Shown: positions 23,294 through 61,737 of the stretch, in pieces
Layout: each line of letters begins with the position of its first letter
Numbering within the stretch: the first letter of the stretch is position 1
NCBI GenBank assembly: GCA_964537315.1
Contig: CAZIAP010000002.1
Coordinates: 107,237-171,236 of the forward strand
Length of the DNA stretch: 64,000 nt
Origin: an uncultured Gammaproteobacteria bacterium
Lineage (GTDB): Bacteria > Patescibacteriota > Microgenomatia > Levybacterales > GWA1-39-11
Direction of reading: 5' to 3'
Notes under the pieces: model-generated
What the model saw: the letters and a program-made list of their open reading frames with translations, nothing else
Database searches by the model: none
What the model was told of the DNA's origin: nothing
Program-made: the position numbers and the translations under genes

Positions 23294-23296
23294 ACA

Positions 23297-23701
23297 CTAC
23301 AAAGAGTTTTCTGAGTCAGGAATTTCTGTTGGACTCGGTAGGTTAGGTGTCTCTTCCGGTAATTCTTCTAGCTGTGTTTCTTCTTCTAAAGAAGTTTCAG
23401 GGTTGGTTTGTGTAATAGGGTTAAGATCTGCGCTTGAAGTCCCATCTTCTGTACTTTCAGGAAGCGGAAGATATTCTGCAGTCAAAGAAAGATCAACTGG
23501 AACATCTACTCTACTTTCTAGCTGATTAAGAGTTTCTCTATCAAATGTAGGTTCAATTGGTATTGAGTGTACATTTGTGTCTTCAGGGATAGTTGAGGTA
23601 GTTACGTTAAAATAAATAACTGCTGCTATCCAGGTAACTACTACAACAGACGTAAGTACAGCAAAATAAAATAAATTCTTTACAAGATTATTGTTTGGCA
23701 T
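23297..23701 (-). CDS. Small bitopic membrane protein with acidic Pro/Glu/Thr-rich ectodomain
   Basis: Single TM (FYFAVLTSVVVVTWIAAVIYF). The C-terminal region is rich in E/T/P. Overlaps neighbouring genes on both sides. Confidence 0.4.
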   Translation of the reverse strand: MPNNNLVKNLFYFAVLTSVVVVTWIAAVIYFNVTTSTIPEDTNVHSIPIEPTFDRETLNQLESRVDVPVDLSLTAEYLPLPESTEDGTSSADLNPITQTNPETSLEEETQLEELPEETPNLPSPTEIPDSENSL

Positions 23702-28787: not shown

Positions 28788-29909
28788 TTACAGTAAGAAT
28801 AAAAGTAATCCTCCGATTACAGTTATAACAACTGCCCCTCCTACTCCCAGCATAGTACCTATTGACCCTGGAGGTGCAATAGTGGGAATAGGGGCTTCAG
28901 TAGGAGCAATAGGTGTTTGTGCAGATGGAGTTGAATTGCCTGTATTCGCACTTACTATTACTGTCTGCGTACAAGCTGTACTGGAATCACCGTCATTATC
29001 AGTGAAAACAACCGATAAATTATAAGTGTTAGCAGTTGTATATGTATGACTTTGTTGAATGTTGGCAGACGGTGAACCTAAGCCTTCTGTAACATCAATA
29101 ACCTGTCCATCCCCAAAGTTAAATGTAGCTTTTACTACTTGTCCGTCAGTATCATTGCCTTGAGCGGTGAGTTGAGTTATAAGAGGTGCTGCTCCACTAG
29201 CAGGTATTATCTGAAGGCTTGAACAGACAGGTAACTTATTAGGAGATTTGGTTGGAGTAGGGTTTGAAGTAGGCGAAGCTGGTGGAGAAGCTGAGATTGT
29301 AGGACGACTTGTAGGTGTAGGGCTCGTTGTTCCTCCTGCAAGTATTGTTATAGAAGTTGGCGCTGCATTTACGAGCACATTTTCACCTGGACCATCATTA
29401 GTAGATATTGATAGAACTTGAGTAGATCCTGGGAAATCAAAAGAAATCTCCGTTGGAGTATCTGTTACCTCTAAAGCTTCGAGTTCGATAGTAGCAACTT
29501 TAAATGGTTGAGTAATGTCACCAGAAGGATCATAACCTGTATCTATAATCTTATTTATTCCGAACTCTACACTGGCAGTATTTTCAGTAATATCTGGCCC
29601 TGATAAAGTCGTAGATATATTCTGTGGATCAGGAGTAATCTGAGTTATTATAATTTTACTCGGATCAAACTGTAGTGAAAATTTAATAAAGGATGGGATA
29701 TTTTGACCGGGATCGAGCATTACGTCTACAGTAAACGACTCTCCTACAGCAACAGAGGGCTTTGAGGATACTAATGTAAGGTTGCTCGAAGGTGCTGCAC
29801 TACTTCTTAGGTCTTGTTGTTGCTTCACAAAATAAAGAGTTAAAGGTATAGTTACTAAAAGAAGCGCCAAAACTCCTATCAAAAAAAACTGTTTACTGGT
29901 GAATTTCAT
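28788..29909 (-). CDS. Surface protein with cohesin-like domain, PKD domain, Pro/Thr/Ser linker and C-terminal TM
   Basis: N-terminal signal anchor carrying the shared IPLTLYFVKQQQDLRSSAA motif. Cohesin-like beta-sandwich (VAVGESFTVDVMLDP...LQFDPSKIII). PKD-like FNFGDG...HTY. C-terminal helix GAVVITVIGGLLLFLL. Confidence 0.5.
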   Translation of the reverse strand: MKFTSKQFFLIGVLALLLVTIPLTLYFVKQQQDLRSSAAPSSNLTLVSSKPSVAVGESFTVDVMLDPGQNIPSFIKFSLQFDPSKIIITQITPDPQNISTTLSGPDITENTASVEFGINKIIDTGYDPSGDITQPFKVATIELEALEVTDTPTEISFDFPGSTQVLSISTNDGPGENVLVNAAPTSITILAGGTTSPTPTSRPTISASPPASPTSNPTPTKSPNKLPVCSSLQIIPASGAAPLITQLTAQGNDTDGQVVKATFNFGDGQVIDVTEGLGSPSANIQQSHTYTTANTYNLSVVFTDNDGDSSTACTQTVIVSANTGNSTPSAQTPIAPTEAPIPTIAPPGSIGTMLGVGGAVVITVIGGLLLFLL

Positions 29910-40762: not shown

Positions 40763-41143
40763 TTAAGCTGGAGGGTTATTTTTTTGATGAGAGACTTCCT
40801 GAAATTTTTTAGGAGGTTTTCGAAAATAAACTATACTGAGAAGTACAATCAGTAGTAATATCACTACATAAGATCCTTCCGTATATCCAAGCATACGCAG
40901 TAGCAAAGTTGCAACTACAAAAAGCGCAAAGAAAACTCCTTTAATACTATTAAAAAAAATGTAAGTAAATACAAGATACGCGTACAAAAAAATCAATAAA
41001 AAGAATAAAATAATCGGATCAATCATAAAAGTATATAACTCAATTTTTTGATGAGGATCAATAAAATAAACAAGTTCAAATAGTGCAATGCTGAAAATTG
41101 CAATCGCGATAATAAAATGCAGCAGGCGTTTTCTAGAATGCAT
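40763..41143 (-). CDS. Small 4-TM membrane protein
   Basis: 126 aa and hydrophobic; no family recognised. Confidence 0.3.
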   Translation of the reverse strand: MHSRKRLLHFIIAIAIFSIALFELVYFIDPHQKIELYTFMIDPIILFFLLIFLYAYLVFTYIFFNSIKGVFFALFVVATLLLRMLGYTEGSYVVILLLIVLLSIVYFRKPPKKFQEVSHQKNNPPA

Positions 41144-41464: not shown

Positions 41465-43408
41465 ATGATGGATGGATTTAATCATCTAGTTTCTTCTTTT
41501 TTCTCATCTTCCAAAAACATGGCTGGAATGATTGTGATTTTAATAATTGCAATCGCAGTTCCTGTCACGTTAGGTCTTATCAAACAGAATCAGGATAATC
41601 GGCAGGAGGCTGCTACTACTTACAGGCCTGGAACAGCAGCAGAAATTGCGCAGTGTAAACAAGGGTGTAACGGCTTATCAAGCTGGAGCAAGAATGGATG
41701 TTTAACTAGTTGTGAAGGATTACAAGTACCAGTTAGCGATGGTTCTGGTTCATCAAGTACAAAAAAAGAGAATGGTGAGCGGTGTAATACAAATACTGAT
41801 TGTAAAAGTTCTCAGTGTACTACAGCTACTTACTGTGGAACAACAGCTAAATATTGTGTAGCAACCACATATTATCCCAATCGGAACGTAGCTTGTCCAG
41901 CTGGATCTGGAGGGTCATCAGATGCGTCATCTTGTACAGGCTCAACTAACAGGGGATACAATTGTGCTTGTACGTCCAATTCTCAGTGTTCTTCTGGTAG
42001 CTGTGGATATGTAGACTCACAATATAGTCAGTTGATAGGTAAAAAATGTCTTACCGGAACTAGTACTGCTCCTACATCTGCTCCCGCAGGTGGAGCTTCT
42101 GGTAACTTCTCATGTTCAATAAGCGCCAGACAGGCTACAATTATTACAAGTGGTGTGACTTCAGTTAATAACATTAGGGGGCAAGTTAATCCTTCAAATA
42201 ATACCGGAGGAAAATATAACAGAATACGATGGATATTAACACGTGGATCAACAACTGTGGTAGACGAACACTCGATTGGTAACACAAATAATCCAACAGA
42301 AAAGTATTTTAAGAGTCTTTCTGCAGGCACATATACTCTAAATGCAAGGTTTTATCCATTAGATGGCTCTGCAGCGTCTGTTTCTTGTGGTAGTAGTACT
42401 GTAACAATTTCATCTACAGGCAGTTTTGCTTGTACTATGAATGCGGGAGTAGAGTTGGGAAATGAAGTGTGGATGAAAGTAGATAAGCCTACAGGGGACA
42501 CAACGGGTTACGATAGAATCGTTTGGAGAATAGGAAATTCACTTGAAAAGCATACCAACGGTAATACAAACAATTTTACGATATCATCGTTTACAGGTGT
42601 TCCTTCTGGTACTCATAGGGCTTATGCTAATTTTTATTCTTCAAATGGAACAAAACCTTCTGAGTACTGTGGCGAGAAATGGGTGACTGTCGCTGCTGCA
42701 CCAACTAGTACTCCAACAAACACGCCTACGAAGACTCCAACAAATACGCCAACTGTAACAGTATCAGCTCCAGTGGGGGGGAATAATTCTACAGTGACAA
42801 GCACACCAACGAATACTCCTACTGCGACTAGCACTCCTACCAGAACCCCTACTACACCTGTAAATCCTACTGCGACTAGGACTCCTACTGCAACTCCAAC
42901 TACAAACCCTCAGCAAATGACATTGAAGTTGTCTGCCACTCTTCCGGGAATCGGGAGTGGAACTGGGAATAATGCCAATCCTAAACGTACTACACGAACG
43001 GGGTCAGTAGAGATCTATAATACTCAAAACGTCAAAGTAAAAGAAGGAGAGACAAGCTTTACATATCAAGGTGGCGTATACAGTGGAACTATTGAGATGA
43101 CTAACGCTCCTGCAGGTACATATTATGTAAAGATGAAATTTGATAACACGATCTTCCAGCAGTTGCCTGGTGTATATAACCTAACATTGGGAGCAAACAC
43201 GCTTCCTACTGTAGCGCTTGCTCCAGGTGATCTAAATCAGGACAATAACCTGAATATGCAGGACTACTCTATTTTTGTCAGCTGCTATGGCGAAAAAGAA
43301 TGCGAAGCTTCATCAAAGCAAATGTCTGACTTTAATGATGATGGGATAATTGATGGAATAGATTACAATATTTTGATCAGGTCATTTGCGATCAGATCAG
43401 GAGATTAA
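41465..43408 (+). CDS. Large secreted Cys-rich protein with tandem beta-sandwich repeats, Thr/Pro linker, Cna-B/CarboxypepD_reg-like domain and dockerin-like C-terminus
   Basis: Signal anchor with the shared VPVTLGLIKQNQDNRQEAA motif. Cys-rich module (about 28 Cys). Two roughly 100-aa internal repeats (NRIRWILTRG... and DRIVWRIGNS...). TPTNTPT linker. C-terminal duplicated D-x-N-x-D-G-x-I-D segments (DLNQDNNLNMQDYSIF, DFNDDGIIDGIDYNILIRSF). Confidence 0.55.
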   Translation: MMDGFNHLVSSFFSSSKNMAGMIVILIIAIAVPVTLGLIKQNQDNRQEAATTYRPGTAAEIAQCKQGCNGLSSWSKNGCLTSCEGLQVPVSDGSGSSSTKKENGERCNTNTDCKSSQCTTATYCGTTAKYCVATTYYPNRNVACPAGSGGSSDASSCTGSTNRGYNCACTSNSQCSSGSCGYVDSQYSQLIGKKCLTGTSTAPTSAPAGGASGNFSCSISARQATIITSGVTSVNNIRGQVNPSNNTGGKYNRIRWILTRGSTTVVDEHSIGNTNNPTEKYFKSLSAGTYTLNARFYPLDGSAASVSCGSSTVTISSTGSFACTMNAGVELGNEVWMKVDKPTGDTTGYDRIVWRIGNSLEKHTNGNTNNFTISSFTGVPSGTHRAYANFYSSNGTKPSEYCGEKWVTVAAAPTSTPTNTPTKTPTNTPTVTVSAPVGGNNSTVTSTPTNTPTATSTPTRTPTTPVNPTATRTPTATPTTNPQQMTLKLSATLPGIGSGTGNNANPKRTTRTGSVEIYNTQNVKVKEGETSFTYQGGVYSGTIEMTNAPAGTYYVKMKFDNTIFQQLPGVYNLTLGANTLPTVALAPGDLNQDNNLNMQDYSIFVSCYGEKECEASSKQMSDFNDDGIIDGIDYNILIRSFAIRSGD

Positions 43409-43454
43409 AGTAAAATACTGGATACAGAATACGGAATACAGTATACTAAAAACT

Positions 43455-44051
43455 ATGCCTAAGCGAACAGTTATATTGATCTTAGTTTTAACTATCTTAA
43501 CAGGAGTTTTGGTGTTTTTAGCGCTTAAGAATGAGCAGAGAACAGCACCTCAACAAGCTGGTGAAGGAGAAAGGATAACCGAAGATACAGCGCTGCCCGA
43601 GAAAACAGCAACTCTAACATTTGATCCTCAAATAATGGAAGCTATACCTTCAACCGCGTCAGCAAACACTGTTGATGTAGTACTCAATGCCAATGAGCAT
43701 ACTATTGATAGTGTTCAGCTCGAGATAGTTTATGACCCTGCTGATCTTTCTAATGTAACAGTGAGTGCACCGGAGAATAACATATTCGGTGGTCCAGGTA
43801 GCTATACTGTCATACCAATGCCTTCAGATCCTGCACTTGGTAGAGTTTCATTTGCAATGGGTATCAGTACTCAAGCTCAAGCAGTACAAGGTGCTGGTCC
43901 TGTAGCACGAATTTCATTCACGGTGAACCCATCAACTACAAAAGATGTTACTCAAATCCAGATCATGGATCGATCTATGATAGTTGAGACAAATAGTCAT
44001 GAAAGTGTTCTTGCGCCGGTTGATCCACTTACTATTAACATTATTCGGTAA
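43455..44051 (+). CDS. Secreted cohesin-like domain protein
   Basis: Signal anchor. The beta-sandwich segment ATLTFDP...VDVVLNANEHTIDSVQLEIVYDPADLSNVTV is cohesin-like. Start chosen at the ATG at 43455 (MPKRTV...). Confidence 0.45.
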   Translation: MPKRTVILILVLTILTGVLVFLALKNEQRTAPQQAGEGERITEDTALPEKTATLTFDPQIMEAIPSTASANTVDVVLNANEHTIDSVQLEIVYDPADLSNVTVSAPENNIFGGPGSYTVIPMPSDPALGRVSFAMGISTQAQAVQGAGPVARISFTVNPSTTKDVTQIQIMDRSMIVETNSHESVLAPVDPLTINIIR

Positions 44052-44057
44052 CGCTGC

Positions 44058-44855
44058 ATGAAAAATTTAGTTTCAAAATTCCCTCAGTATTTTTCTTCTC
44101 ATACAAGAGTCATCCCATTACTCGGAGTTCTTACATTACTTCTTGCACTTCCTTTAACTCTAAACCTAATTAAGAACAATCAAGATAATAGGCAGCAAGC
44201 TGCATCCTTAAATGATCAACTTTCTATACAGCAAAACAACCCGAATCCTGGTGTCCAAAGTTTAACATGTGAGTCAGTTAACGGAAGGTGTGTGACCGAA
44301 TCTGAGTGGGCAAGTACGCAGGCAATTTTTGCAGCTGCTTCTGTAGATGGTACATATGCTTGTCCTCAAAAAGGCGGACAGAACCAGGTTTGTATTGTAC
44401 AAGAACGAGCAAATGTATCTAATCAGACATGTGACGTATCTGCCGGATTCACTTGTGATTATCGAGGACACGATGAATGTGAGGCTACCCTCGGGGTTGG
44501 TAATTGTGAACATGAAGCGAATGCTAGATGTCATAATGGAAATCTGTGTATGAAAATTTCCAGTTCTTCAAACTCAAACTTTCCGCCTTTAGGTAGTCCA
44601 TGTCCTGACGGATCATCCAACTTCTCTTGTGGATATGGATCTCCAAATACACAGTGTCCAGTATGTAGCCCTACTTCCTCTTGTAGCACTGGAAACTATA
44701 CCATACAAGCCTGTTCAGGAGCTGGGTCGTGTACAAATGATCCTGACTGCGCAGGAAATCCTCCAAGTTGTCCTGCAGGACAGACTGGTCAGGTAGTTTG
44801 CCAAAAAGCTGCCGGGCAAACACAAGGTGCTTGTGTTACTGTTAACTGTCGATAA
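44058..44855 (+). CDS. Small secreted, extremely Cys-rich protein
   Basis: Signal anchor with the LPLTLNLIKNNQDNRQQAA motif. More than 30 Cys in roughly 210 mature residues (about 15%). No TM after the anchor. Confidence 0.5.
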   Translation: MKNLVSKFPQYFSSHTRVIPLLGVLTLLLALPLTLNLIKNNQDNRQQAASLNDQLSIQQNNPNPGVQSLTCESVNGRCVTESEWASTQAIFAAASVDGTYACPQKGGQNQVCIVQERANVSNQTCDVSAGFTCDYRGHDECEATLGVGNCEHEANARCHNGNLCMKISSSSNSNFPPLGSPCPDGSSNFSCGYGSPNTQCPVCSPTSSCSTGNYTIQACSGAGSCTNDPDCAGNPPSCPAGQTGQVVCQKAAGQTQGACVTVNCR

Positions 44856-48447: not shown

Positions 48448-48738
48448 ATGCCGTGTGAAGCAAATGAGGTTTATACTGACTTTGGGTGTGTTCCTAATGA
48501 TCCAATCGGATTTGTAGAAAGATTTTACGGAATAGGACTTTCGGTTATAGGAATGGTGGCTGTACTATTCCTTATAATTGGTGGGTATCATATTCTGACT
48601 TCTCAAGGGAGTCCTGAAAAGCTGCAAAAAGGTCGTGAATATATCTTGTATTCTATTTTAGGGTTACTGCTTGGAGTATTTGGGTTCGTTTTCGTACAGA
48701 TAATAACCGGTGTATTACATATTCCCGGATTTAGCTAA
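48448..48738 (+). CDS. Small 2-TM protein (VirB2/TrbC-pilin-like topology; alternatively holin-like)
   Basis: 96 aa. Polar N-terminus with two Cys (CEANEVYTDFGC), two hydrophobic helices separated by TSQGSPEKLQKGRE, and a short tail. Confidence 0.35.
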   Translation: MPCEANEVYTDFGCVPNDPIGFVERFYGIGLSVIGMVAVLFLIIGGYHILTSQGSPEKLQKGREYILYSILGLLLGVFGFVFVQIITGVLHIPGFS

Positions 48739-48744
48739 AGACTT

Positions 48745-51162
48745 ATGAAAAAATTTCTGCCCAAATTTGTACTTATCACATTTTTCTCTATTGCCTTTCT
48801 CCTTGTAGGTACTCTGACTAGCGTTAGTGCTCAGACATTAGACTCTCCGAATGATGTTAATAACGGTAACTGGGTTGAGGATCCAGAGGTGACATTTGTC
48901 GGAAAGGCAGCAAACAGAGCAAACGATTTTTTAAACTGGACATTGCAAAATTATAACTGGCTATGTGTAGAAAAAGCCGGTGATGCCTGTGTAAATACAT
49001 ATGACAATAATCCCTTAGTTGAGTTTTGGGAAATGGTGCGTAATATCATATATGCTTTACTTCTCTTATTTGTTTTGGGAACTGCGGGTGTAATTATAGT
49101 TACGCGAGGTCAAAACATCACTATTATGCGTTTTGTGCCTAGATTTATCGTAATTATTTTACTTGTTACATTTTCATTTGCGTTAGTTCAGTTCTTATAT
49201 GTTGTAGTTGATATTGTCCAAGGATTTTTCCTTCGACCTGATGGACCAGAAGGACCGCTAATTTCATCAGCTGATCTGCTTTATATAGCTTTTCCTTATG
49301 AATTTACTGGCTTTAGGGCACTAGGATCTGATAATGACGAATCCGCATTTATCTCATTGTTGCTTGTAAAACTAACCGCAATTACTTATTATGTGATGAC
49401 AGGTGTGTTATTAGTGCGAAAAATCATCCTCTGGTTTTTCCTTATCGTGTCACCTATATTTCCTCTGCTTATCTTTTACCGCCCTGTTCGCAATACCGCA
49501 AAGATTTGGGTTGGAGAGTTCTTCCGTTGGTTGTTGTACGCGCCTCTCTTTGCACTTTTTCTACACGGTTTGGTGGTTATGTGGAGAGATAAAATTCCAC
49601 TCGCATTTGATTTTAACTCACAGGGTAGTGTTGCAGGCACAGACGTACTCTATCCTACAGCAGTAAACATTTTAATCGGTGGACCAGGTCAACAGATAGG
49701 GATCAATAACTCAGTTAATCTTCCTGATACTTTCGCACTATACGTAGTTGCTTTAATCATGCTTTGGGTGGTTATCTTGCTACCATTTTTACTACTTCGA
49801 ATTTTCTTAGATTACTTTAATTCCATCTCATTTAGCGGATTTATGTCTAAGCAGGTCAACAAAAACTTTGCTTTCTTAAACCCACGTGGTCCATCGGGTG
49901 GTCCAACTCCTCCGCCTCCTCCGGGTAAGGTGTTTCCAACCGGCATGGCGCGTCAGTTGCCATTTTTGAATAAAGCCGCAAAAACAATTGAAGTTGGTAG
50001 GCCGGTCAGTACCAGTAGTACGAGAGATATTAGATCATCCGTGCAGTCTAATGTTAGCCAACCTGTAGCAGTAAGAGAGGTTAACGAAGTTCTCAAGTCT
50101 GTCAATATAAGTGTTCCTAAGATGCAGGACGTTGTGAAGTATGAGAGAGCGTTATTAAGTAATAATATTACTGAACGTCAAACAGTCACACAGTTCCGTG
50201 AGACATTAGAAAAAATTGCAAATCCAGCACAGGTTACTTCAGTTACAGAGCGTCAGCAGTTTAGCCAGATACACGAGAAGCTAACTACCCAGCAGGAGAG
50301 AGGAAACCCGTTGGCAACATCAATTCTTAAGGCTGCTGGAAAAACAACTGTAAGTAGTACAATTGATATTAATCAGCAGCTTCGAATGTTGCTCCAGCAG
50401 CTAGCGAGCCCATCTACTGTAAACCCACGTGTACGTCAAAAGATGAGTACACTTAAAACACAGCTTACAGGTGCTCAACATAGTGGAAATAATTTAGCAA
50501 CAACTGTGCTGACTACTGCTGAGAAAATCAGTAAAAAAGAGCTAACTAAAGAGCAGGAAGATGCAGCGATTGAGGAGATCAAGACAAAGATCCAGGAGCA
50601 AAAACAGACAAGCGATCCAGTTACTCAGTCTGTTGTATCTACGATGCAACAAGCACAGGCTGTAACAGAAACTCAATCATTACCTGTTATAAATAGAGTC
50701 CAGCAAGTAAGCATTGAAGATTATGAGGAGGTACGAAAGATGTGGGTAGAGAATTATGAGACATTAGAACCTCCTAAGACGCTTGAAGGCAAGCAACTGG
50801 AGAGAGAGGAATGGGTTAGAAGTGACGTGCAGAAGATTAATGAAGCAGTCACTCTGCTTTCATCTGTTGAGCCGCAAAAAGTTAATGAAGGTATGGAGAT
50901 GGTCGGAAGTATTTTGCCGTTCCTACTCATGGGAGGTTTCTCTAAATCTGAGGTTGTTGCCTACTTGAAAGCGAAGCTTGCAGCTGCCAAGTCTATACTG
51001 GAAGCAGCCGAAAAGCAGAAAGACGATGAAGATTCGATGATATATCGCGAGACCAAGAAAGAAGAGGCAAAAGAAATGAGCATAAAACATGCTATAGAGC
51101 TTCCGAGTGAAAAAGAATCGCCTAAAAATTCGGAAGACGACGAGACTAAGACTCAACCGTGA
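48745..51162 (+). CDS. Large polytopic membrane protein with Sec signal peptide, ~6 TMs, poly-Pro hinge and ~400-aa coiled/Q-rich cytoplasmic tail (VirB6/TrbL-like architecture)
   Basis: Signal peptide ...TSVSA|QT. The TM block spans roughly aa 95-330. GGPTPPPPPGK follows. A long hydrophilic C-terminus carries degenerate internal repeats. Confidence 0.4.
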   Translation: MKKFLPKFVLITFFSIAFLLVGTLTSVSAQTLDSPNDVNNGNWVEDPEVTFVGKAANRANDFLNWTLQNYNWLCVEKAGDACVNTYDNNPLVEFWEMVRNIIYALLLLFVLGTAGVIIVTRGQNITIMRFVPRFIVIILLVTFSFALVQFLYVVVDIVQGFFLRPDGPEGPLISSADLLYIAFPYEFTGFRALGSDNDESAFISLLLVKLTAITYYVMTGVLLVRKIILWFFLIVSPIFPLLIFYRPVRNTAKIWVGEFFRWLLYAPLFALFLHGLVVMWRDKIPLAFDFNSQGSVAGTDVLYPTAVNILIGGPGQQIGINNSVNLPDTFALYVVALIMLWVVILLPFLLLRIFLDYFNSISFSGFMSKQVNKNFAFLNPRGPSGGPTPPPPPGKVFPTGMARQLPFLNKAAKTIEVGRPVSTSSTRDIRSSVQSNVSQPVAVREVNEVLKSVNISVPKMQDVVKYERALLSNNITERQTVTQFRETLEKIANPAQVTSVTERQQFSQIHEKLTTQQERGNPLATSILKAAGKTTVSSTIDINQQLRMLLQQLASPSTVNPRVRQKMSTLKTQLTGAQHSGNNLATTVLTTAEKISKKELTKEQEDAAIEEIKTKIQEQKQTSDPVTQSVVSTMQQAQAVTETQSLPVINRVQQVSIEDYEEVRKMWVENYETLEPPKTLEGKQLEREEWVRSDVQKINEAVTLLSSVEPQKVNEGMEMVGSILPFLLMGGFSKSEVVAYLKAKLAAAKSILEAAEKQKDDEDSMIYRETKKEEAKEMSIKHAIELPSEKESPKNSEDDETKTQP

Positions 51163-51223
51163 CGAAGTTTAGTTGTGAGAGAGGTCAGAGTGTGTCTATA
51201 ATAAACAAGTTATTAGTTATCTT

Positions 51224-54200
51224 ATGTTTGGAAATCTATTTAATCAGAAAAAAGATGGAACGGAAGAACAGGTTCCTCCTACACCTGTGCAGGTGCCACA
51301 GCAGGGAGTAAATCCTGTTGTTGACCCTTCTCAGCCGCAGATGACACAACAACCTCCACAAGTAGTGCAGACAGGTAGCGTAGAACAGACGACTACAGGT
51401 ATGGGAATTCAGGCAGGCCTGCCCGCAATGCAAAGCAACGCGTTTCAGGCGGGACCTGTTGTGTTTAGTCAGACTGACACAGTAACAAATACTCAAAATG
51501 TACCAATTCAACCTCAGCAACCGGGGCAAAATCCACAAGCCGTGTCTCAGCCAACTATGCCAGATCAAACAGTACCAGGTCAGCCTATTGCTCCTGATAA
51601 TCCAGGGATGGGAGCAGAGAAAATGCAAAACGTATCGGCTCTTTCTCGTTTGGATGCCAGAGCAACGCAGGTATTACACCATGCGCAAGAAGAAACCAGG
51701 AGGATTCAGCAAGCACTTATAGAACCTGACCAGATACTTTATGGCTTGATCTATGACAGTGGGGTATACAAGCTCCTTGAACAGTTCTCAATTGATGCAT
51801 CAAAAATTGCAAAAGATATACAAGGAAAATCCCAACAGGGTACATTTACAGGACAGCCAACTCTAAGCCCGCAGTCTCAAGAAATTTTTGATACTGCTTT
51901 TAATTCGGTAAAAGCGCGACAGGCAAGTTTTATAACTCCTGAGGATATTCTACTAGCCCTTTTCAATGCAGCAGCAATGGCTGAGTTTTTCAGAACTCAG
52001 GGAGTTGATAAAGGAAAAGTAGAAGAAAAGCTTGCAAAAAACACTAGTTTTGTGGGAGATGGAAAGAGATCAGTTCTGGATAAATACAGTATAGATCTTA
52101 CACAAAATGCAAGAGACGGCCTATTAGATCCAGTTACTGGACGTGACGTTGAGATAGAAAGACTTGTACACATTTTGCTTCGTAGAACAAAAAATAATCC
52201 GATAATTATAGGTGAAGCAGGTGTAGGAAAAACAGCTATAGTCGAAGCTATTGCACAAAAAATTGTAGATGGACAGATTCCTGAAGATCTAAAAAACAAA
52301 AAAATTATTCAGCTAGACCTTGCTTCGATGATTGCAGGTGCTGCTCGTAGAGGTGAGTTTGAAGAGCGCCTACGTAGTATTATTCAGGAGGTGCAAGCTT
52401 CTGGACAGATAATTTTATTCATCGATGAAATACATACTCTAGTTGGAGCAGGCGATTCGGGAGGCGCGCTGGATGCATCAAATATTATTAAACCATATCT
52501 TTCTCGTGGGCAGCTTCAGCTAATTGGTACAACCACAACTGCTGAGTTCAGGAAGTATTTTGAAAAAGACAAAGCATTTGAAAGAAGATTCCAACCGATT
52601 ATGGTTCAAGAACCGGACGAAGAGGTTGCGGTAGAGATGTTAAATGTTATCAAACCTAAATATGAAAAGTATCACAACGTTGTGATGACGCCTGAGTCTA
52701 TCGAAGCTGCTGTTGTGCTATCTAAAAAATATATCGGAGAAAGATTTCTACCCGATAAAGGTGTGGATTTGCTTGATGAAGCAGCTGCAGAGGTAAAGCT
52801 TGCTAAAGCAGAAGGGAAACGGCAGGATAATAATATTGTTAAAACTGATATAGAAAAAGTAGTTTCAAGTTGGACGGGGATTCCGATCACACGACTTACA
52901 GAAGACGAAAGTGAAAAGTTGCTGCACTTAGAAGATCATATTCATAAACGCCTCATTGATCAGGAGGAAGCTGTTGCAGCGGTCTCAGAGGCAGTACGTA
53001 GAGGGCGAATCGGTCTCGCTTCAGCAAACAGGCCGATTGCTTCATTTATATTTTTGGGTCCTACAGGTGTCGGTAAAACGGAGCTTGCCAAAACCCTTGC
53101 TGAGATTTTGTTTGGCAGGGATGACGCAACTATCCGACTTGATATGTCTGAGTATATGGAAAAGCATGAGGTTGCAAAACTTATCGGTGCTCCTCCGGGA
53201 TATGTAGGTTATGAAGAAGGCGGACAATTAACAGAAGCTGTAAGATCAAAACCATACTCAATTGTGCTCCTTGATGAGGTTGAGAAGGCACATCCTGATG
53301 TGTTTAATATTCTACTGCAAATTTTGGAAGATGGAAGACTCACCGATAATAAAGGTAATACAATTTCATTTAAAAATACTATTATTATTGCCACTTCAAA
53401 TCTTGGAAGCCACATAATCCAAAAGTTTTTACTTGAACGGGCAAAAAATTCTGGAAAATCTACCGAGAATATCGAAAGTTCTACAACTGAGAAGAATCCA
53501 GATGAATCCAAAGGTAAAGAAAATACTGAAAAACAGGCTAACTTAGAAAATGACGAGAAGAATAATGATGTCTCAACAGAGGGTGCACAATCTGGTAAGG
53601 ATACAACTGGATCAAAGTCATATTCAGAACAACGAGTAAATCTACAGCTTGGAGGAAATACTGATAAGAAAACCGATGGTGAGTTCGAAGAGCTGACAAA
53701 ATTACTGCAAGAAGAGCTGCATAAATTCTTCCGTCCTGAATTGTTGAATAGATTTGATGATCTTGTAGTATTCAAGCCGCTTGCACAGCGTGATATGATG
53801 CAGATTGCAAAGCTCGGTATCGGTAAAACTCAAAAACTCTTAAAAGAGCAAGGATTTGACATCCAAATTACGGATCTAGCACTGGATCAGCTGGCAAAAG
53901 AAGGGTACGATCCTGTATATGGTGCTCGACCTTTGAGAAGATTAATTCAAAACTCAATTGAAAACGCAATCGCTATTGCATTAATTAGTAAACAGTTTGT
54001 TGCTGGTGACACCATTATTATTGATTACGACACTACACAGCAAAAGTTTGCTTTCTCAAAGGGAGCTTCTCAAAACCAGTCAGGACAGCCACAGGGAGAG
54101 GGTTCTCAACCACCTACTGGGCCAGGTCAGCCTGTCAATACCCAAGGTACAACAAATCAACAAACTGGATTACCCCAGAACTCTCCTCAAGCTCAGATAC

Positions 54201-54463
54201 CAAATCAGAACACAGGTCAGGTAGTTAATCAAAATCCTGCAACACAGCAACCTGTTCAGCCAACTGCTCCACAAGAAGTGTACTATGGTGTTCCTCCTCA
54301 GAATCAGCAAGTAAATTCTCAGCCAGTTCAACCAAATCAACCTATTGGACAAGAAAATGGAACAGGTATAGTGCAGCCACCGCAAACACCTCCACAGTAT
54401 CCGCAGACTAACGGTGCGGGTCCGGCAGGAAATGGCGCAACCATGAATACGTCTGTATCCTAG
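51224..54463 (+). CDS. ClpC/ClpA-like double-ring AAA+ ATPase with Q/P-rich N- and C-terminal extensions and a low-complexity insert in D2
   Basis: Clp_N-like repeat. D1 Walker A IIIGEAGVGKTAIVEAIA, Walker B ILFIDEIHTLVGAG. D2 Walker A FIFLGPTGVGKTELAKTLAE, Walker B IVLLDEVEKAHPDV. The short inter-ring linker means no ClpB-type M-domain. A roughly 100-aa K/E/S/T-rich insert at 53433-53735 replaces the usual ClpP-binding IG[FL] loop. Confidence 0.8.
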   Translation: MFGNLFNQKKDGTEEQVPPTPVQVPQQGVNPVVDPSQPQMTQQPPQVVQTGSVEQTTTGMGIQAGLPAMQSNAFQAGPVVFSQTDTVTNTQNVPIQPQQPGQNPQAVSQPTMPDQTVPGQPIAPDNPGMGAEKMQNVSALSRLDARATQVLHHAQEETRRIQQALIEPDQILYGLIYDSGVYKLLEQFSIDASKIAKDIQGKSQQGTFTGQPTLSPQSQEIFDTAFNSVKARQASFITPEDILLALFNAAAMAEFFRTQGVDKGKVEEKLAKNTSFVGDGKRSVLDKYSIDLTQNARDGLLDPVTGRDVEIERLVHILLRRTKNNPIIIGEAGVGKTAIVEAIAQKIVDGQIPEDLKNKKIIQLDLASMIAGAARRGEFEERLRSIIQEVQASGQIILFIDEIHTLVGAGDSGGALDASNIIKPYLSRGQLQLIGTTTTAEFRKYFEKDKAFERRFQPIMVQEPDEEVAVEMLNVIKPKYEKYHNVVMTPESIEAAVVLSKKYIGERFLPDKGVDLLDEAAAEVKLAKAEGKRQDNNIVKTDIEKVVSSWTGIPITRLTEDESEKLLHLEDHIHKRLIDQEEAVAAVSEAVRRGRIGLASANRPIASFIFLGPTGVGKTELAKTLAEILFGRDDATIRLDMSEYMEKHEVAKLIGAPPGYVGYEEGGQLTEAVRSKPYSIVLLDEVEKAHPDVFNILLQILEDGRLTDNKGNTISFKNTIIIATSNLGSHIIQKFLLERAKNSGKSTENIESSTTEKNPDESKGKENTEKQANLENDEKNNDVSTEGAQSGKDTTGSKSYSEQRVNLQLGGNTDKKTDGEFEELTKLLQEELHKFFRPELLNRFDDLVVFKPLAQRDMMQIAKLGIGKTQKLLKEQGFDIQITDLALDQLAKEGYDPVYGARPLRRLIQNSIENAIAIALISKQFVAGDTIIIDYDTTQQKFAFSKGASQNQSGQPQGEGSQPPTGPGQPVNTQGTTNQQTGLPQNSPQAQIPNQNTGQVVNQNPATQQPVQPTAPQEVYYGVPPQNQQVNSQPVQPNQPIGQENGTGIVQPPQTPPQYPQTNGAGPAGNGATMNTSVS

Positions 54464-54464
54464 T

Positions 54465-56408
54465 ATGGAAAATCCGCAGTCTTCAAGTTTTACATCACTG
54501 TTTCAATCTCGTAGGTTTCTAATTGCAGCAGGATTTATTTTACTTCTTGTGCTTGTTGGAGTAGGAATATTTTTTATCTTAAGCAGCAAGCCTCCACTCG
54601 AGCCTATTCCTGAAGGCTCTGTGTACACTCCCGACGAAGTAACTGTACAGTTTGCGCAAGGTTATACACCTGCTCCGCAGGGAGAGAATGAAAATTGGGA
54701 TAGGTTGTATGCAAAGCTCCAAGAACTGGGCGTTCAGTCATACTCTAAAGTGTTCGATTCAAATGATCCTGATTTATCAAGATATTATAAGCTTAAGCTT
54801 TCTTCTGATGCTGAAGTTGCCACAATCCGTGAAGAGTTATATAAGCTTGATGAAATAAAAGCTTCTGAACCTGAGTATATCCTCAGTACTCAGTTGAGTG
54901 CTAATGATGCAGAATATTCTGGTATGTGGGGACTGAAAAAAATTGATATTGAAAAAGCTTGGGATGTAACCAGAGGCTCAAACTCTGTGAAAGTCGCAGT
55001 GGTAGATACGGGAATTGACTATAATCACCCTGATTTCGCAGGGAGATCAATTATTAAGGGTAAGGACGTATCAACTTGCGACAGCACATACCAAGAGCTT
55101 CTTGCTTCAAACGGTCAATGTACGAAACCTAAACAACCTGATAATGACCCATTAGATAGTAATAACGGACACGGCACTCACGTTGCGGGAACAATAGGCG
55201 CTGCGACTAATAATGGAATAGGAGTCTCTGGAGTAAATTGGAACGTAACACTAATTGCCGTAAAAACGATGGGAGAAGGTGGCGCAGGGGGTATGTCTGA
55301 AATTGCAAATGGATTGGTAGATGCAGTGGATAGAGGAGCTGATGTGGTAAATATGAGTCTTGGTGGAGAGGGAACATGTACATCTCAGATGCAACAAGCG
55401 ATAAATTATGCCAGAAATAAAGGAGCTGCTATAGTAGTCGCTGCCGGAAACGGTGACAGAAATGGTAATCCTATTGATGCCTCTCGGGTTACTCCAGCGA
55501 GCTGTACAGGTGTAATTGTGGTTGGAGCAACGGGACCAAATGATGAACGCTCAAGTTATTCAAACTACGGAACACGGGTAGATCTAGCGGCGCCTGGAGG
55601 AAATGAACCAAGAGGAACATCATCATGCACAAAATCTAATTGCATAACTTCAACATGGCCAGGAAGACAGTACAGATCGGTTCAAGGTACATCTATGGCA
55701 GCGCCTCACGTAGCAGGTGTCGCAGCTCTTCTGCTGGCACAAAATGGCAGCCTAACACCGGATGACATTAAAAGATGTCTTATTAACAGTGGAAACCCAA
55801 TAAGTACAGACAGACCAATTGGTGGAAAAAGACTTAATGCATATAGTGCGCTTAACGGCTGTATAGCAAGTGCGAATCAGCCGACGACTCCTCCTGCAAA
55901 TCCGCCTACTGCTACTCCAACAGATACGCAAGCGCAAACACCAGCCATTGAACCATCAGAGTATTATCTAAAAGGTTTTACATACTCGGATGCTAATAAT
56001 AATCTTACCTTTGATTCAGGAGAGACCATGGTTGCGGGAGTCATATTGAAGTTGACTGATGAATCAAACGTAAACACTAATATTCCTACTGGAGCAGATG
56101 GTAAGTTCGAATTTAGAAATTTAAAACCTGGTTCTTATCTATTAACCGCAACAGTTGGTACTCGAGATGTGATGGAGTATAGAATAGGACTTGATTTAAA
56201 TATGAGCAGCCAAAACATACCAATTCCGATTCCCTCAGTAGAACCGTCTGATCCCGATAATCCTTCACAAGGGGAGAATAGGGTAATTATAACAGGCTCA
56301 CCTACTCCAACTCCTCGTCCGTTACATACATGTGTAGAGAAGACTACTCAGCAACGTGTTAATAACCGTGTCTTGCAGCTTAAGTACCTCGACTGCACTC
56401 CTATATAA
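54465..56408 (+). CDS. Membrane-anchored subtilisin-like serine protease (S8) with C-terminal Cna-B/CarboxypepD_reg-like domain
   Basis: N-terminal TM. Catalytic triad motifs VAVVDTGIDYNHPDF (Asp), HGTHVAGTIGA (His) and GTSMAAPHVAGVAALL (Ser). The C-terminal segment DGKFEFRNLKPGSYLLTA is a prealbumin-like fold. Confidence 0.85.
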   Translation: MENPQSSSFTSLFQSRRFLIAAGFILLLVLVGVGIFFILSSKPPLEPIPEGSVYTPDEVTVQFAQGYTPAPQGENENWDRLYAKLQELGVQSYSKVFDSNDPDLSRYYKLKLSSDAEVATIREELYKLDEIKASEPEYILSTQLSANDAEYSGMWGLKKIDIEKAWDVTRGSNSVKVAVVDTGIDYNHPDFAGRSIIKGKDVSTCDSTYQELLASNGQCTKPKQPDNDPLDSNNGHGTHVAGTIGAATNNGIGVSGVNWNVTLIAVKTMGEGGAGGMSEIANGLVDAVDRGADVVNMSLGGEGTCTSQMQQAINYARNKGAAIVVAAGNGDRNGNPIDASRVTPASCTGVIVVGATGPNDERSSYSNYGTRVDLAAPGGNEPRGTSSCTKSNCITSTWPGRQYRSVQGTSMAAPHVAGVAALLLAQNGSLTPDDIKRCLINSGNPISTDRPIGGKRLNAYSALNGCIASANQPTTPPANPPTATPTDTQAQTPAIEPSEYYLKGFTYSDANNNLTFDSGETMVAGVILKLTDESNVNTNIPTGADGKFEFRNLKPGSYLLTATVGTRDVMEYRIGLDLNMSSQNIPIPIPSVEPSDPDNPSQGENRVIITGSPTPTPRPLHTCVEKTTQQRVNNRVLQLKYLDCTPI

Positions 56409-57405: not shown

Positions 57406-57732
57406 ATGCCTGCCCTGCTGTACCCTATTTTTCTATTGAAATTTTGGTATATCGATGCGACAAAGTTTTTTTTGCACGTTTACCGTGAACTATTTGTTTA
57501 TTGTTTGTCTCTTTTTTCTCTACCATTACTCATTCGTTCATTCTTCAGACCGGTTAAAAACGAGTACAGAAAGGACTTAGTATTGTTTTCTATTTTTTTC
57601 GGTATGGGGGTAAAATCTGTACTTATCAGTATATCTATCGCAATTATGCTGTTTCTATTACTTGTAGGCGTAATATTACTTATTAGTTTTTGGGCATTTC
57701 CTTACTTTGTCTATCAGCTATTAAGCTTATGA
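57406..57732 (+). CDS. Small 3-TM membrane protein
   Basis: 108 aa and hydrophobic. It overlaps the start of the following AAA+ gene, so its reality is uncertain. Confidence 0.3.
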   Translation: MPALLYPIFLLKFWYIDATKFFLHVYRELFVYCLSLFSLPLLIRSFFRPVKNEYRKDLVLFSIFFGMGVKSVLISISIAIMLFLLLVGVILLISFWAFPYFVYQLLSL

Positions 57733-60122
57733 ACGATTATAAAAACCTGTTTACATATTATTCTTTTTTTAATACTGGCTGGGTGGTATTGGTAAGATAT
57801 GTCATTTTTTTCGCGTGTTTACTGCTTCTTTTTCTATTTATCCAGGATCTAGATAAGTCTAAAATGATCTTAGCAGGATTCATGCTTTTTTTAGCAAATG
57901 AGCTATTTATACATCTGAAAATAAATAAAGTTCGTCCTCAAAAGACAGTTTCACAGGTTGCAGTCGATACGCTTGAGTTAGCAGTTTTTTTCCGTCCGCT
58001 TTTATTTCTTAGACATTCTAAGAATGGAATAGATCTTGCTCGTAAGCTGGTAAGACATCCCGCAAATACATATTTACTAGGAAAAATTACTGGTTCACTG
58101 GCGATACCAGAAGCAGATGTAGAAATAACAGCAATACTTCAAAAAGCTTATGTATTAGTTAATAGTGTAAAAGGACAGTATATCTCTCAACTCGATTTAT
58201 TTGCTGCTTATATTCTGCTCGCGGAAAACTCTGTGCACATGCTTGAGAATGCGGATATGAACGAACAGGACTTTATAAACATATACTACTGGGCACGTAA
58301 TTCCTATAAGGTTGATGAAAATAATAAGCCATTTAAGATGTCATTTTATGGAGATGGTTCTTTTGATTTTTTTGTTTACGGTTGGAGTACAGAGTTAAAA
58401 AAATATGCAAGAAGTGTTAATTCAAGTGTGCTTTCTCGCAAGCATATTCCTCGTGTTATCGGGCGAGGTGCAGAATACGAACAATTGATTGTTGCACTAA
58501 GTAAACCGCAAGCTCGCAATATACTGCTTATCGGTGAACCCGGTACCGGAAAAACTTCACTTGTCGAGTTTTTCTCGTACAATTCTCATCTTGGTAAAGT
58601 CCCTGCTCAACTATCTAATATGCAAGTATATGAAATATTCATTGATAGGTTACTAGCTGGAGTATCTGATAGAGGAGAGCTTGAACATCGTTTAGTTACA
58701 CTGATCGATGAAGCGGGTCATGCCGGAAACATCATATTATTTATACAGAACATTGAAAATATTTTTGGTGCGGGAGGATTTGATTTTGATATCTCAGGAG
58801 TACTATATGATTACCTTAAAAACGGAATGTTAACTGTTATCGGTACAACAACAAACTCCGCTTATAATACTCACATTGCAAATCGTGAAGCTACAGCTGC
58901 GCTTTTTACAGCAATCGATCTTCCTGAGCCGGATGAGGATACTACACTTTACATGTTATTTGAAAAAGTAGGAGATATAGAGCGTCAGTACGGTGTTGAT
59001 ATTACCTACTCTGCAGTAAAAACACTAACCACTTTATCAGGAAGTTATCTGACAGATAGAGCTTTGCCTGGAAAGGCGATTACTGTTTTAGAAGATATAG
59101 CTACCTCCCAGCAGATAAAAGGAAAACATCCTATTATTACAAAAGAAGTTGTGGAAGCGCATCTATCTGCGAAGACTCGCATTATTATTGGTAATCCAAC
59201 TAAAGAAGAAAAAGAACTACTGCTTAATCTTGAGGATAAACTGCACGAACGTATTGTAAGTCAGGATAGAGCAGTACAGGTAGTGGCAAATGCCATGCGT
59301 CGAGTTAGAAGTGGACTTAAATCAGGACATAGGCCAATAGCTGTTTTTCTATTTCTTGGACAGACTGGCGTGGGAAAAACGGAGACAGCAAAAGCTTTGG
59401 CAGAGGTTTATTTTGGAAGCGATGAGTCTATGATCAGGCTAGATATGAGTGAGTTTCAGAATCAGGATTCAATAGGAAAGTTACTAGGGGAGCAGGTTGG
59501 TCAAGAATACGCGGAAAATGCATTTACTGAGCAAGTTGCTAAAAATCCTTTTTCTCTCATCCTTTTAGATGAGTTTGAAAAAGCCCACCCGCAAATTTTA
59601 AATTTATTTCTTCAGGTTTTTGAGGATGGTAGGCTAACGGATAATAAAGGCAGAACTGTATCATTTCAAAACTCCATTATCATAGCTACATCCAACGCTG
59701 GTAGTGAGTATATACGTCAACAAGCTGGTCAGATTACCGACATTGATGTATTTACAAAACAGTTAATGGATATGCTGATGCGATCAGGACAGTTTAAGCC
59801 GGAGTTGCTTAACCGCTTTGATGAAACAGTTGTGTTTACTCCGCTTACCAAAGAAAATTTGCTCTCAGTTGCCAGCTTACTGCTTCAGAAAGCACTTGCT
59901 CCTCTGCAGGACAAGCAGATTAGCATAACATTTGATCAGGCTATTTTGAACAAAATCGTTTCAGAAAGCTATGATGAATATTTTGGAGCGCGGAACATTC
60001 GAAGATATATTACATCAACGGTTTCGGGATATATATCAGACCTCGTATTAAAAGATCAGCTTAAAAAAGGTTCACAGGCGGTACTTACAGTTGATTCATC
60101 GAATCAAATAACGATAAGATAG
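57690..60122 (+). CDS. Membrane-anchored Clp/Hsp100-like double AAA+ ATPase with degenerate D1 Walker B
   Basis: The N-terminal 90 aa form 2-3 TM helices in place of a Clp_N domain. D1 Walker A LIGEPGTGKTSLVEF. D1 Walker B reads ILFIQNIENIFGAG, i.e. QN where DE is expected (Q353/N354, nt 58746-58751). D2 Walker A FLFLGQTGVGKTETAKALAE and Walker B LILLDEFEKAHPQI are canonical. No IG[FL] loop. Confidence 0.75.
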   Translation: MGISLLCLSAIKLMNDYKNLFTYYSFFNTGWVVLVRYVIFFACLLLLFLFIQDLDKSKMILAGFMLFLANELFIHLKINKVRPQKTVSQVAVDTLELAVFFRPLLFLRHSKNGIDLARKLVRHPANTYLLGKITGSLAIPEADVEITAILQKAYVLVNSVKGQYISQLDLFAAYILLAENSVHMLENADMNEQDFINIYYWARNSYKVDENNKPFKMSFYGDGSFDFFVYGWSTELKKYARSVNSSVLSRKHIPRVIGRGAEYEQLIVALSKPQARNILLIGEPGTGKTSLVEFFSYNSHLGKVPAQLSNMQVYEIFIDRLLAGVSDRGELEHRLVTLIDEAGHAGNIILFIQNIENIFGAGGFDFDISGVLYDYLKNGMLTVIGTTTNSAYNTHIANREATAALFTAIDLPEPDEDTTLYMLFEKVGDIERQYGVDITYSAVKTLTTLSGSYLTDRALPGKAITVLEDIATSQQIKGKHPIITKEVVEAHLSAKTRIIIGNPTKEEKELLLNLEDKLHERIVSQDRAVQVVANAMRRVRSGLKSGHRPIAVFLFLGQTGVGKTETAKALAEVYFGSDESMIRLDMSEFQNQDSIGKLLGEQVGQEYAENAFTEQVAKNPFSLILLDEFEKAHPQILNLFLQVFEDGRLTDNKGRTVSFQNSIIIATSNAGSEYIRQQAGQITDIDVFTKQLMDMLMRSGQFKPELLNRFDETVVFTPLTKENLLSVASLLLQKALAPLQDKQISITFDQAILNKIVSESYDEYFGARNIRRYITSTVSGYISDLVLKDQLKKGSQAVLTVDSSNQITIR

Positions 60123-61167: not shown

Positions 61168-61737
61168 TTATTGTAGTTCCGCAAATACAAGTAGCCTTCT
61201 CAGATCAGTTCCAACTGGTGTGCAAGTTTGTAGAATCAAGTCCGCGTTGGGTTTTTTCAGATATTGTACTTCACTTGGCCAGACCTCTTTAATTTCAATT
61301 ACTTTATAAGTATATTTTTTATCTCCGTTTGTGATGGTGATTTCATCTTTAATCTGGAGCTGGTGAAGTTTAAAAAAAGCAGTGTTGTATTGTGTAATAT
61401 TCCAAGGATAATCTGATGAGTGAGCAAAAAGGTAAGTTCCTTTTTGACCCGGAAGAGCAGTACCTTTAGCGTGTGCTATGCCGTGCCTCAATGAATCTTT
61501 GTATTCTGACTCATTCCAAGGATCAACATTTTTAACGATGGGCGCAGCAGCTTTAATCTTAGGAATTTCAATCCAATAAGATTCCGAATCTTGAGCTACA
61601 GCGACATTTTGCAACGGTGTAGGTGGAGTAAAAAAATATATACGAATAATAGGAGTGTATATGTAAAGCAGTAAAATAACTGCAGATATCATAAGTGCTG
61701 TTCCTAGTTTTTGGTGAAATTTTTTTGGTTGTATCAT
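61168..61737 (-). CDS. Sortase-family transpeptidase
   Basis: N-terminal TM. Active-site TLxTC-type motif LILQTCTP with Arg downstream (DLRRLL), and upstream His (LFAHSSD). 189 aa. Confidence 0.65.
   Translation of the reverse strand: MIQPKKFHQKLGTALMISAVILLLYIYTPIIRIYFFTPPTPLQNVAVAQDSESYWIEIPKIKAAAPIVKNVDPWNESEYKDSLRHGIAHAKGTALPGQKGTYLFAHSSDYPWNITQYNTAFFKLHQLQIKDEITITNGDKKYTYKVIEIKEVWPSEVQYLKKPNADLILQTCTPVGTDLRRLLVFAELQ

Follow-up and report, generated by a model that had tools for sequence, protein, structure and literature searches.

A conserved N-terminal module, made of basic residues, a hydrophobic stretch and a polar block, is carried by unrelated secreted proteins in Levybacteria and their relatives among the Microgenomates, which belong to the Candidate Phyla Radiation (CPR). 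We studied this module in a stretch of 64,000 nucleotides (the window; contig CAZIAP010000002.1, assembly GCA_964537315.1, positions 107,237 to 171,236) from a genome that is titled uncultured Gammaproteobacteria bacterium and placed in the Levybacterales by GTDB. Three proteins encoded in the window carry the module. It is conserved, independent of the cargo and confined to this lineage, where it looks like the main export signal, present on most secreted and surface proteins. The module is a genuine signal whatever the cargo and, judged from its sequence features, probably has a signal peptidase site of unusual specificity.

In the window, three copies of a motif of ~19 residues had been noticed from the letters alone, and the translation placed each of them just past the N-terminal hydrophobic stretch of an open reading frame (ORF). 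These are VPVTLGLIKQNQDNRQEAA (41558-41614, plus strand) in ORF 41465-43408, encoding 647 amino acids (aa), LPLTLNLIKNNQDNRQQAA (44148-44204, plus strand) in ORF 44058-44855 (265 aa) and IPLTLYFVKQQQDLRSSAA (29793-29849, minus strand) in ORF 28788-29909 (minus strand, 373 aa). When the six-frame translation of the window was searched with the regular expression (regex) of the sequence-only reading, only these three places matched. A degenerate DNA version of the motif found the same three sites and gave no match in 100 dinucleotide-preserving shuffles. As had been claimed, the carriers are otherwise unrelated, being a dockerin protein, a Cys-rich protein and a cohesin-PKD protein. A fourth, weaker copy, FLALKNEQRTAPQQA, had been proposed in the cohesin protein that starts at 43455. 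This is not an instance of the motif: the orthologues keep no Q-[DE]-x-R-x-x-A, and their N-termini in other loci read MPKKTTILI...FLAVSEGQKPKAPE, ...YLAVRSDQTLQTRT and others.

The genes of the 647-aa and 265-aa proteins are near neighbours with 14 of the 19 motif residues in common, as might be expected from chance similarity, or if an exon-like segment at the N-terminus had recently been duplicated between adjacent paralogues. We consider such an origin hardly credible, and it was ruled out by the shuffles, by the genome scan described below, by a comparison of codons and by BLASTP of the mature parts. The mature parts of the two proteins are unrelated (BLASTP E=0.71), and 8 of the 14 identical motif residues are encoded by different codons. 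The likeness is therefore kept by selection at the amino-acid level, which excludes a recent duplication of the DNA. Moreover, the same module was found on ~50 cargo families in many genomes. The motif is thus not limited to the three window proteins, and the synonymous codon differences and unrelated mature parts show that it did not arise by recent duplication of a paralogous N-terminus, the two outcomes that the sequence-only reading had named as fatal to it.

For the genome scan we used a cargo-blind DNA pattern (P-[LVIFM]-T-[LVIFM]-x2-[LVIFM]-x2-[QHNK]-Q-[DE]-x-R-x2-A) on one genome per GTDB species. The scan returned at least 120 loci, with at least 83 N-terminal matches that have an upstream hydrophobic stretch. 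Among the matches listed, all N-terminal ones with a meaningful taxon title came from Levyibacteriota, Gottesmanbacteria or the 'Patescibacteria group'; the ~35 matches in other phyla (Prevotella, Streptomyces, Rhodopirellula and others) were internal and non-hydrophobic and are therefore regarded as chance. Together with neighbouring genes in the same loci, the N-terminal matches gave at least 99 carriers, referred to below as the 99 carriers, from ~50 cargo families and roughly 80 loci of related genomes. The motif thus recurs on different cargo well beyond the window. Named homologues belong to Candidatus Levybacteria/Levyibacteriota. Many other true loci are titled 'uncultured Gammaproteobacteria bacterium' (third-party annotation assemblies and GTDB representative metagenome-assembled genomes). 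In the 11 loci with this title that contain GroEL (L025, L029, L052, L054, L056, L058, L078, L083, L088, L094 and L106), GroEL is 63-90% identical to that of the window and the synteny groES/EL-cohesin/PKD-lepA is kept, and we therefore regard these loci as mislabelled relatives whose titles are wrong or placeholders. A few GTDB representative metagenome-assembled genomes titled Saccharimonadales or Lysobacterales show Levybacteria-type synteny too.

We also searched 1.84 billion cluster representatives exhaustively with a 37-column profile that was built mostly from cohesin-PKD orthologues. At E<=1e-3 the profile matched 842 cluster representatives (50% identity), and at E<=1e-10 it matched 54. 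The best 150 of the 842 matches were mostly cohesin-PKD orthologues, because the profile was built mostly from these, and eight had unrelated or truncated mature parts. A homologue search with the alignment of the three N-termini gave six candidates, none of which was scored, as the word index is too coarse for queries of this length. With 53 diverse N-termini as the query, the search gave two matches, one of them from 'Candidatus Shapirobacteria'. A scan of viral contigs gave two pattern matches and no N-terminal signal (the match in L125 is internal, and none was recovered from L126).

Alignment of the carriers revealed that the motif forms the end of a larger module at the N-terminus, which consists of K/R residues, a hydrophobic stretch and the polar block. 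The motif of ~19 residues is thus real, but the conserved module is longer than had been claimed and includes a hydrophobic segment of fixed length. When positions are numbered relative to the Pro (position 0), the module starts with one or two basic residues (K/R at -16/-15). The stretch that follows is hydrophobic, is 21 residues long in 67 of the 99 carriers (median 21) and usually has Pro-x-Thr seven residues before its end. Position -1 is I/L/V; Pro at 0 and Thr at +2 are frequent, but not obligatory. The polar block has the consensus [QK]-Q-[QN]-Q-[DE]-x-R-[SQ]-x-A-A, with Q at +8 (27/38), Q/N, Q and D/E at +9, +10 and +11, R at +13, Q or S at +14, and A at +16 followed by a second A at +17 in 21/38. 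The basic residues, I/L/V at -1, Q at +8 and A at +17 are conserved although they were free in the search pattern. Beyond +17 the information content is at background level. An extra n-region motif, F..[IL]FSS.K[RK], is common to 13 families, including the 647-aa and 265-aa proteins of the window, and the upstream n-region of the 647-aa protein is kept in its homologues at L030 and L063. In the cohesin-PKD family (104 members), conservation over the first 40 residues equals that of the folded domains, which is unusual for a signal peptide. Among 119 homologues of the 373-aa protein, only a few lack the N-terminal block, which has the consensus aIPLTLfFVkkQQ[DE]xRS[RK]A.

The cargo of the module is highly diverse. 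In 43 representative carriers, Pfam identified dockerin (12), CAP (6), cohesin (5) and SdrD_B (4) domains, as well as VWA, PKD, Big_7, GH39, GH5 and GH16 domains, an M4 thermolysin-like peptidase, CBM96, beta-helix and CHRD domains and one PpiD-like SurA_N_3 protein. A regex classifier assigned a hydrophobic C-terminal anchor to 39 and a dockerin-like end to 16 of the 99 carriers, and ~12 further dockerin-like ends that the classifier had missed were seen by eye. The module was found with every kind of C-terminus, be it a dockerin, a membrane anchor or neither. In the carrier loci we counted 87 motif-type N-termini versus ~8 classical short AXA signal peptides, a count that is biased toward the motif because the loci were chosen through it. 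Classical signals are also present in the window, in a VirB6-like protein (48745-51162, ...SVSA↓Q) and an LPVTG protein (61789-62934, ...PVYA↓DD). Since the module is on most likely exported proteins and is unrelated to their final destination, it looks like a general route and not like the mark of a special subset. The possibility that the destination is encoded by the S or Q subtype (position +14, which is -3 of the predicted cleavage site) was rejected, as proteins of either subtype may end in a dockerin, an anchor or a plain C-terminus. Two small Pro/Thr-rich proteins (L008:6005-6370, minus strand; L086:30-401, plus strand) and the PpiD-like chaperone (L048:7024-7950, plus strand) have a common extension, ..NSFQGPLAP.., before a motif-type helix. 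This extension is presumed to be cytoplasmic, and its carriers are those most like uncleaved anchors.

How might the module work? We see about an even chance that it is a lineage-specific Sec-type signal peptide that is cut after the invariant Ala, with Sec dependence, cleavage and the peptidase all predicted from sequence. The helix would target the protein to the Sec translocon and insert there with its N-terminus inside, and its fixed length would keep the polar block at a constant height above the membrane. A membrane-bound enzyme similar to type I signal peptidase (SPase I) would then cut after the invariant Ala and release the cargo, whose folded domain would begin a few residues past the cut. 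This peptidase may be the general enzyme of the LepB type, with an S3 pocket that tolerates Gln, or else a specialised second paralogue.

The statistics of the module fit such a predicted cleavage site. The invariant Ala is at -1 in 99/99 carriers, partly by construction of the search. Pro, which is excluded at +1 of signal peptidase I substrates, is at the predicted +1 in 0/99 carriers and is the commonest residue at +2 (22/99). The predicted -3 residue is S/G/T in 52%, Gln in 38% and K/R in 7% of the carriers, and conservation drops to background right after A16-A17. The first domain follows the motif without a spacer, and folded domains start 3-5 residues past the Ala; the C-terminal anchors of carriers are preceded by Pro/Thr linkers of 30-50 residues. 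An AlphaFold2 (AF2) model of the 373-aa protein (mean predicted local distance difference test score 83.8) has a helix from residue 5 to R35, a coil at 36-41 (SSAAPS) and its first strand at residue 42. The cohesin fold thus starts three residues past Ala-Ala, which supports cleavage there, and a cut after the invariant Ala would leave the mature start APSSNLTLVSSK. When the N-terminal domain of this model was compared with the PDB by Foldseek, the top matches were cohesin modules (TM-score 0.7-0.76 by target length); its PKD domain has a Pfam match. In addition, dockerin-tagged cargo would presumably have to leave the membrane in order to dock. The earlier statement that this is not a standard Sec/SPase I AXA site is half right: about half of the carriers have small-x-Ala and no Pro at +1, and the other half have Gln at -3. 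The 373-aa protein has small-x-Ala (S-S-A↓A), and the 647-aa and 265-aa proteins have the non-canonical Gln at -3.

Several points weigh against cleavage after the Ala. Gln and K/R, here at -3 in 38% and 7% of the carriers, are poor residues at this position according to E. coli LepB mutagenesis. The Ala is ~10 residues past a helix of full membrane-spanning length, a spacing at the long end of SPase I tolerance, and in the AF2 model of the 373-aa protein the helix runs on through most of the polar block. Moreover, the motif is carried by the PpiD-like chaperone (SurA_N_3, L048:7024-7947) and by the small Pro/Thr-rich family with ~45 conserved residues before the helix, both of which are more like uncleaved signal-anchors. 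Because classical short AXA signals coexist with the module in the same genomes, there are two signal classes to account for. A regex search of ~700 kb showed no S26 peptidase gene.

Several of these points would also be expected if the module were an uncleaved type II signal-anchor, whose 21-residue helix stays in the membrane and holds the cargo at the cell surface. Q-Q-[DE]-x-R-x-x-A would then be a juxtamembrane element, which might determine the topology or allow docking to a partner in the membrane or cell wall. The fixed hydrophobic length is enough to span a membrane, the AF2 helix is continuous from residue 5 to 35 through most of the polar block, Gln, Lys or Arg occupy the would-be -3 in 45% of the carriers, and the chaperone and the N-terminally extended Pro/Thr-rich proteins fit an anchor as well. 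Nevertheless, we consider a retained anchor rather unlikely. With folded domains 3-5 residues past the Ala there is no wall-spanning spacer, whereas the C-terminal anchors have Pro/Thr linkers of 30-50 residues. A dockerin, with which many of the carriers end, would be pointless if the protein were already tethered at its N-terminus. Furthermore, conservation that stops at Ala-Ala, with Pro absent at +1 yet frequent at +2, fits a scissile bond and would be unexpected for a structural stalk.

The sequence-only reading had proposed a dedicated sorting or processing signal. The recurrence independent of cargo on which this proposal was built was borne out, but a dedicated machine found no direct support, and the pattern looks like that of a general route. 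According to this explanation, the polar block is read by a peptidase or sorting enzyme that is specific to the lineage and distinct from the housekeeping signal peptidase, as an N-terminal counterpart of the sortase/LPXTG, exosortase/PEP-CTERM or SipW-TasA pairing. Such a CPR-specific enzyme could, for example, be an unrelated membrane protease, or a second signal peptidase whose S3 pocket is specific for Gln/Ser. Classical short AXA and motif-type signals, sharply different from each other, do occur in the same genomes, the module is more conserved in sequence and geometry than is usual for signal peptides, its -3 is non-canonical in nearly half of the carriers, and there is no library model for the motif. 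We still regard a dedicated enzyme as unlikely, since no protease or other candidate gene recurs beside the carriers, whose neighbours are housekeeping genes (groES/EL, lepA, murJ, hrcA-grpE-dnaK), and since the motif is on the majority of likely exported proteins with no correlation with their final destination. Neighbourhood clustering of the ~700 kb examined showed no recurrent protease beside carrier genes, and LepB boxes B, D and E, sought by regex, were not found in the same ~700 kb, which is uninformative about whole genomes. Among the window ORFs scanned with Pfam (~35 of roughly 54), the only proteases were a sortase and an S8 subtilase, neither of them near the motif genes. If a dedicated enzyme did exist, the surface proteome of Levybacteria, including its apparent cohesin-dockerin display system, would have a separate export branch, and standard predictors would systematically miscall this secretome as membrane-anchored.

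For the reading that we favour, a Sec-type signal cut after the invariant Ala, the fixed geometry and Gln/Ser at -3 predict a signal peptidase with altered specificity. The uncultured, ultra-small Levybacteria and other Microgenomates are believed to depend on other cells or to live attached to them, and the likeliest mediators of such a lifestyle are their surface and secreted proteins. A sequence tag would allow the exported set to be listed directly from metagenomes. Among the tagged proteins are glycoside hydrolases, an M4 protease, proteins with CAP domains, Ig proteins that resemble adhesins, and what appears to be a cohesin-dockerin display system. Because the tag looks like a full-length transmembrane helix, signal-peptide predictors may call the carriers membrane anchors or miss them. 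In a Microgenomates genome paper, glycoside hydrolases, including a GH39, were described as 'lacking recognisable signal peptides' (PMC7143001); this may reflect the same predictor problem.

Table 1. Modules, predicted cleavage sites and cargo of the three carriers, and the adjoining cohesin gene (window coordinates)
Feature	Position	Strand	Details
Export module of the 647-aa dockerin protein, aa 1-50	41465-41614	+	n-region LVSSFFSSSKN, hydrophobic stretch MAGMIVILIIAIAVPVTLGLI, polar block KQNQDNRQEAA
Predicted cleavage, 647-aa protein	after invariant Ala49, codon 41609-41611	+	
Cargo of the 647-aa protein	41615-43408	+	Cys-rich and Pro/Thr-rich region, C-terminal type I dockerin
Dockerin of the 647-aa protein, aa 587-640	~43223-43384	+	Pfam PF00404, E=4.7e-7; end ...IRSFAIRSGD
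Small cohesin-domain protein	43455-44051	+	plain N-terminal membrane anchor, no motif; Pfam PF00963; likely start ATG at 43455
Export module of the 265-aa Cys-rich protein, aa 1-49	44058-44204	+	n-region FPQYFSSHTR, hydrophobic stretch with LPLTL, polar block KNNQDNRQQAA
Predicted cleavage, 265-aa protein	after Ala48, 44199-44201	+	
Cargo of the 265-aa protein	44205-44855	+	Cys-rich domain; no Pfam or NCBIfam match; homologue in L076
Export module of the 373-aa cohesin-PKD protein, aa 1-39	29793-29909	-	MKFTSK, 21 hydrophobic residues with IPLTL, KQQQDLRSSAA
Predicted cleavage, 373-aa protein	after Ala38, 29796-29798	-	
Cargo of the 373-aa protein	28791-29792	-	cohesin-fold domain (aa 42-190), Pro/Thr linker, PKD domain (aa 240-317), second linker, C-terminal anchor
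C-terminal anchor of the 373-aa protein, aa 345-373	28791-28877	-	PPGS and hydrophobic helix, no basic tail; C-termini of 119 homologues

The features of the three carriers are listed in Table 1. Many unrelated secreted proteins of Levybacteria end in a single dockerin (...D.NDDG.[IV]D..D.N.L...F..R.GD), and cohesin-dockerin sites were found in the window (41465-44051 and 28788-29909, the latter on the minus strand) and at L007, L011, L030, L037, L063, L067, L069, L077, L090, L099 and L120. The receptors of this apparent surface display system could be the small cohesin proteins and the syntenic, C-terminally anchored cohesin-PKD protein encoded between groES/EL and lepA. Next to the 647-aa dockerin gene and divergent from it, ORF 40763-41143 (minus strand) encodes a protein of 126 aa that matches no family and is predicted to have four membrane helices; the same position is kept in one related genome (L030:4879-5250, minus strand).

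A second, unclassified signal was seen at C-termini. It consists of P-[PT]-G-[SGP], a few residues and a hydrophobic helix that runs to the stop codon without a basic tail (for instance ...PTIAPPGSIGTMLGVGGAVVITVIGGLLLFLL and ...TPTPPGSVSTLLITFSSVILIIAGTTLLFVLG), and is present at 28791-28877 and 21926-22020 (both minus strand), in P0190 and in most of P0001-P0110. No NCBIfam CTERM or LPXTG model matched it, it is unlike the LPVTG-plus-RFR tail of the sortase neighbour, and it may have a sorting enzyme of its own. The region 21923-24961 (minus strand) contains PilN- and PilO-like genes, followed by a gene for a 134-aa anchored protein and one for a 456-aa fn3/Big_13 protein with a degenerate N-terminal polar block, LLQGTQTVGQASKE, and a PPGS-type C-terminal anchor. 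The sortase gene (61168-61737, minus strand; PF04203, E=8.5e-22) adjoins that of a 381-aa Asn/Thr-rich repeat protein (61789-62934, minus strand), which has a classical signal peptide and a canonical LPVTG followed by a hydrophobic helix and a basic tail.

Elsewhere in the window, the gene order at 48448-56408 (plus strand) is a type IV secretion system (T4SS) pilin (PF18895), a VirB6/TrbL-like membrane protein of 805 aa, a ClpB-like AAA+ protein of 1079 aa and a membrane-anchored S8 subtilase, and a second ClpB-like protein, with an N-terminal membrane region, is encoded at 57690-60122. A cluster of four membrane glycosyltransferases of the PMT_2 type (protein O-mannosyltransferase-like) and a DUF2298 protein is encoded at 5773-7152, 11910-14042 and 15705-20600 (all minus strand); these PMT_2-type enzymes could plausibly glycosylate the Pro/Thr-rich linkers of exported proteins. 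FemAB, LytR-CpsA-Psr, the sortase, PilN/PilO, the T4SS pilin with its VirB6-like protein and the several PMT-type glycosyltransferases are typical of CPR and of a single-membrane envelope.

Finally, we compared the module with known signals. It is absent from the searched protein-family libraries and literature. In its behaviour it is similar to a Gram-positive Sec signal peptide to which a conserved motif has been added, as are the YSIRK-G/S, KxYKxGKxW and SipW-cognate signals, with none of which it has any sequence in common. Pfam and NCBIfam gave no N-terminal model, either on full-length proteins (E<=1) or on isolated N-termini (E<=10), apart from noise (MreC, Phr_nterm) below the cut-offs of these models. 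In line with the earlier statement that it is neither a lipobox nor a prepilin site, the lipobox L-[AS]-[GA]-Cys was found in 0/99 carriers (Cys anywhere in the N-terminal region in 6/99) and the class III/prepilin pattern G↓F-[ST]-L-[IL]-E before the hydrophobic stretch in 0/99. A twin-arginine (Tat) motif, S/T-R-R-x-F-L-K, was matched loosely by regex in the n-region of 1/99, and YSIRK-G/S ([YF]-S-[IL]-R-K) in the n/h-region of 0/99 carriers. The searched literature on signal peptides, signal peptidase and cohesin/dockerin of CPR and Levybacteria contained no description of the motif, and a preprint on the CPR Pam pilus mentions only ordinary SignalP-predicted signals.

LPXTG/sortase, PEP-CTERM/exosortase and PGF-CTERM/archaeosortase signals likewise combine a short conserved motif with a membrane helix on many unrelated cargos per lineage. 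These have the opposite topology, usually a basic tail and often an enzyme encoded nearby, whereas the module is N-terminal, no partner gene was found for it, and its position sets it apart from the C-terminal tripartite signals of sortases and exosortases. An in-helix [IL]-P-x-T-[LIV] as a sortase-like LPXT site was rejected, as many carriers are without the Pro or without the Thr and the site would be inside the membrane; the canonical LPVTG of the genome's sortase substrate also rules it out. The SipW-cognate signals of Bacillus (TasA/TapA; TIGR04088) are a precedent for a distinct class with a second, dedicated signal peptidase. In contrast to these, the module has no NCBIfam match at E<=10 and no SipW-like gene beside its carriers, and it is on most exported proteins instead of a handful of substrates. 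YSIRK-G/S and KxYKxGKxW are, like the module, Sec signals with a lineage-restricted motif on unrelated surface proteins, many of them C-terminally anchored, and in both cases the motif bears on routing and not on cargo. Their motifs are in the n- or early h-region, whereas that of the module comes after the hydrophobic core, and there is no sequence similarity. Like the Gram-positive Sec signals cut by LepB/SipS (S26A), the module is N-terminal and has a basic n-region, its long hydrophobic core contains a helix-breaking Pro, its polar c-region ends in Ala, the predicted +1 is not Pro, and the cargo is extracytoplasmic. Unlike these signals, it has a core near-fixed at 21 residues, a sequence-conserved c-region (Q-Q-[DE]-x-R) of 9-10 residues and Gln at -3 in 38%, and the whole signal is conserved like folded domains.

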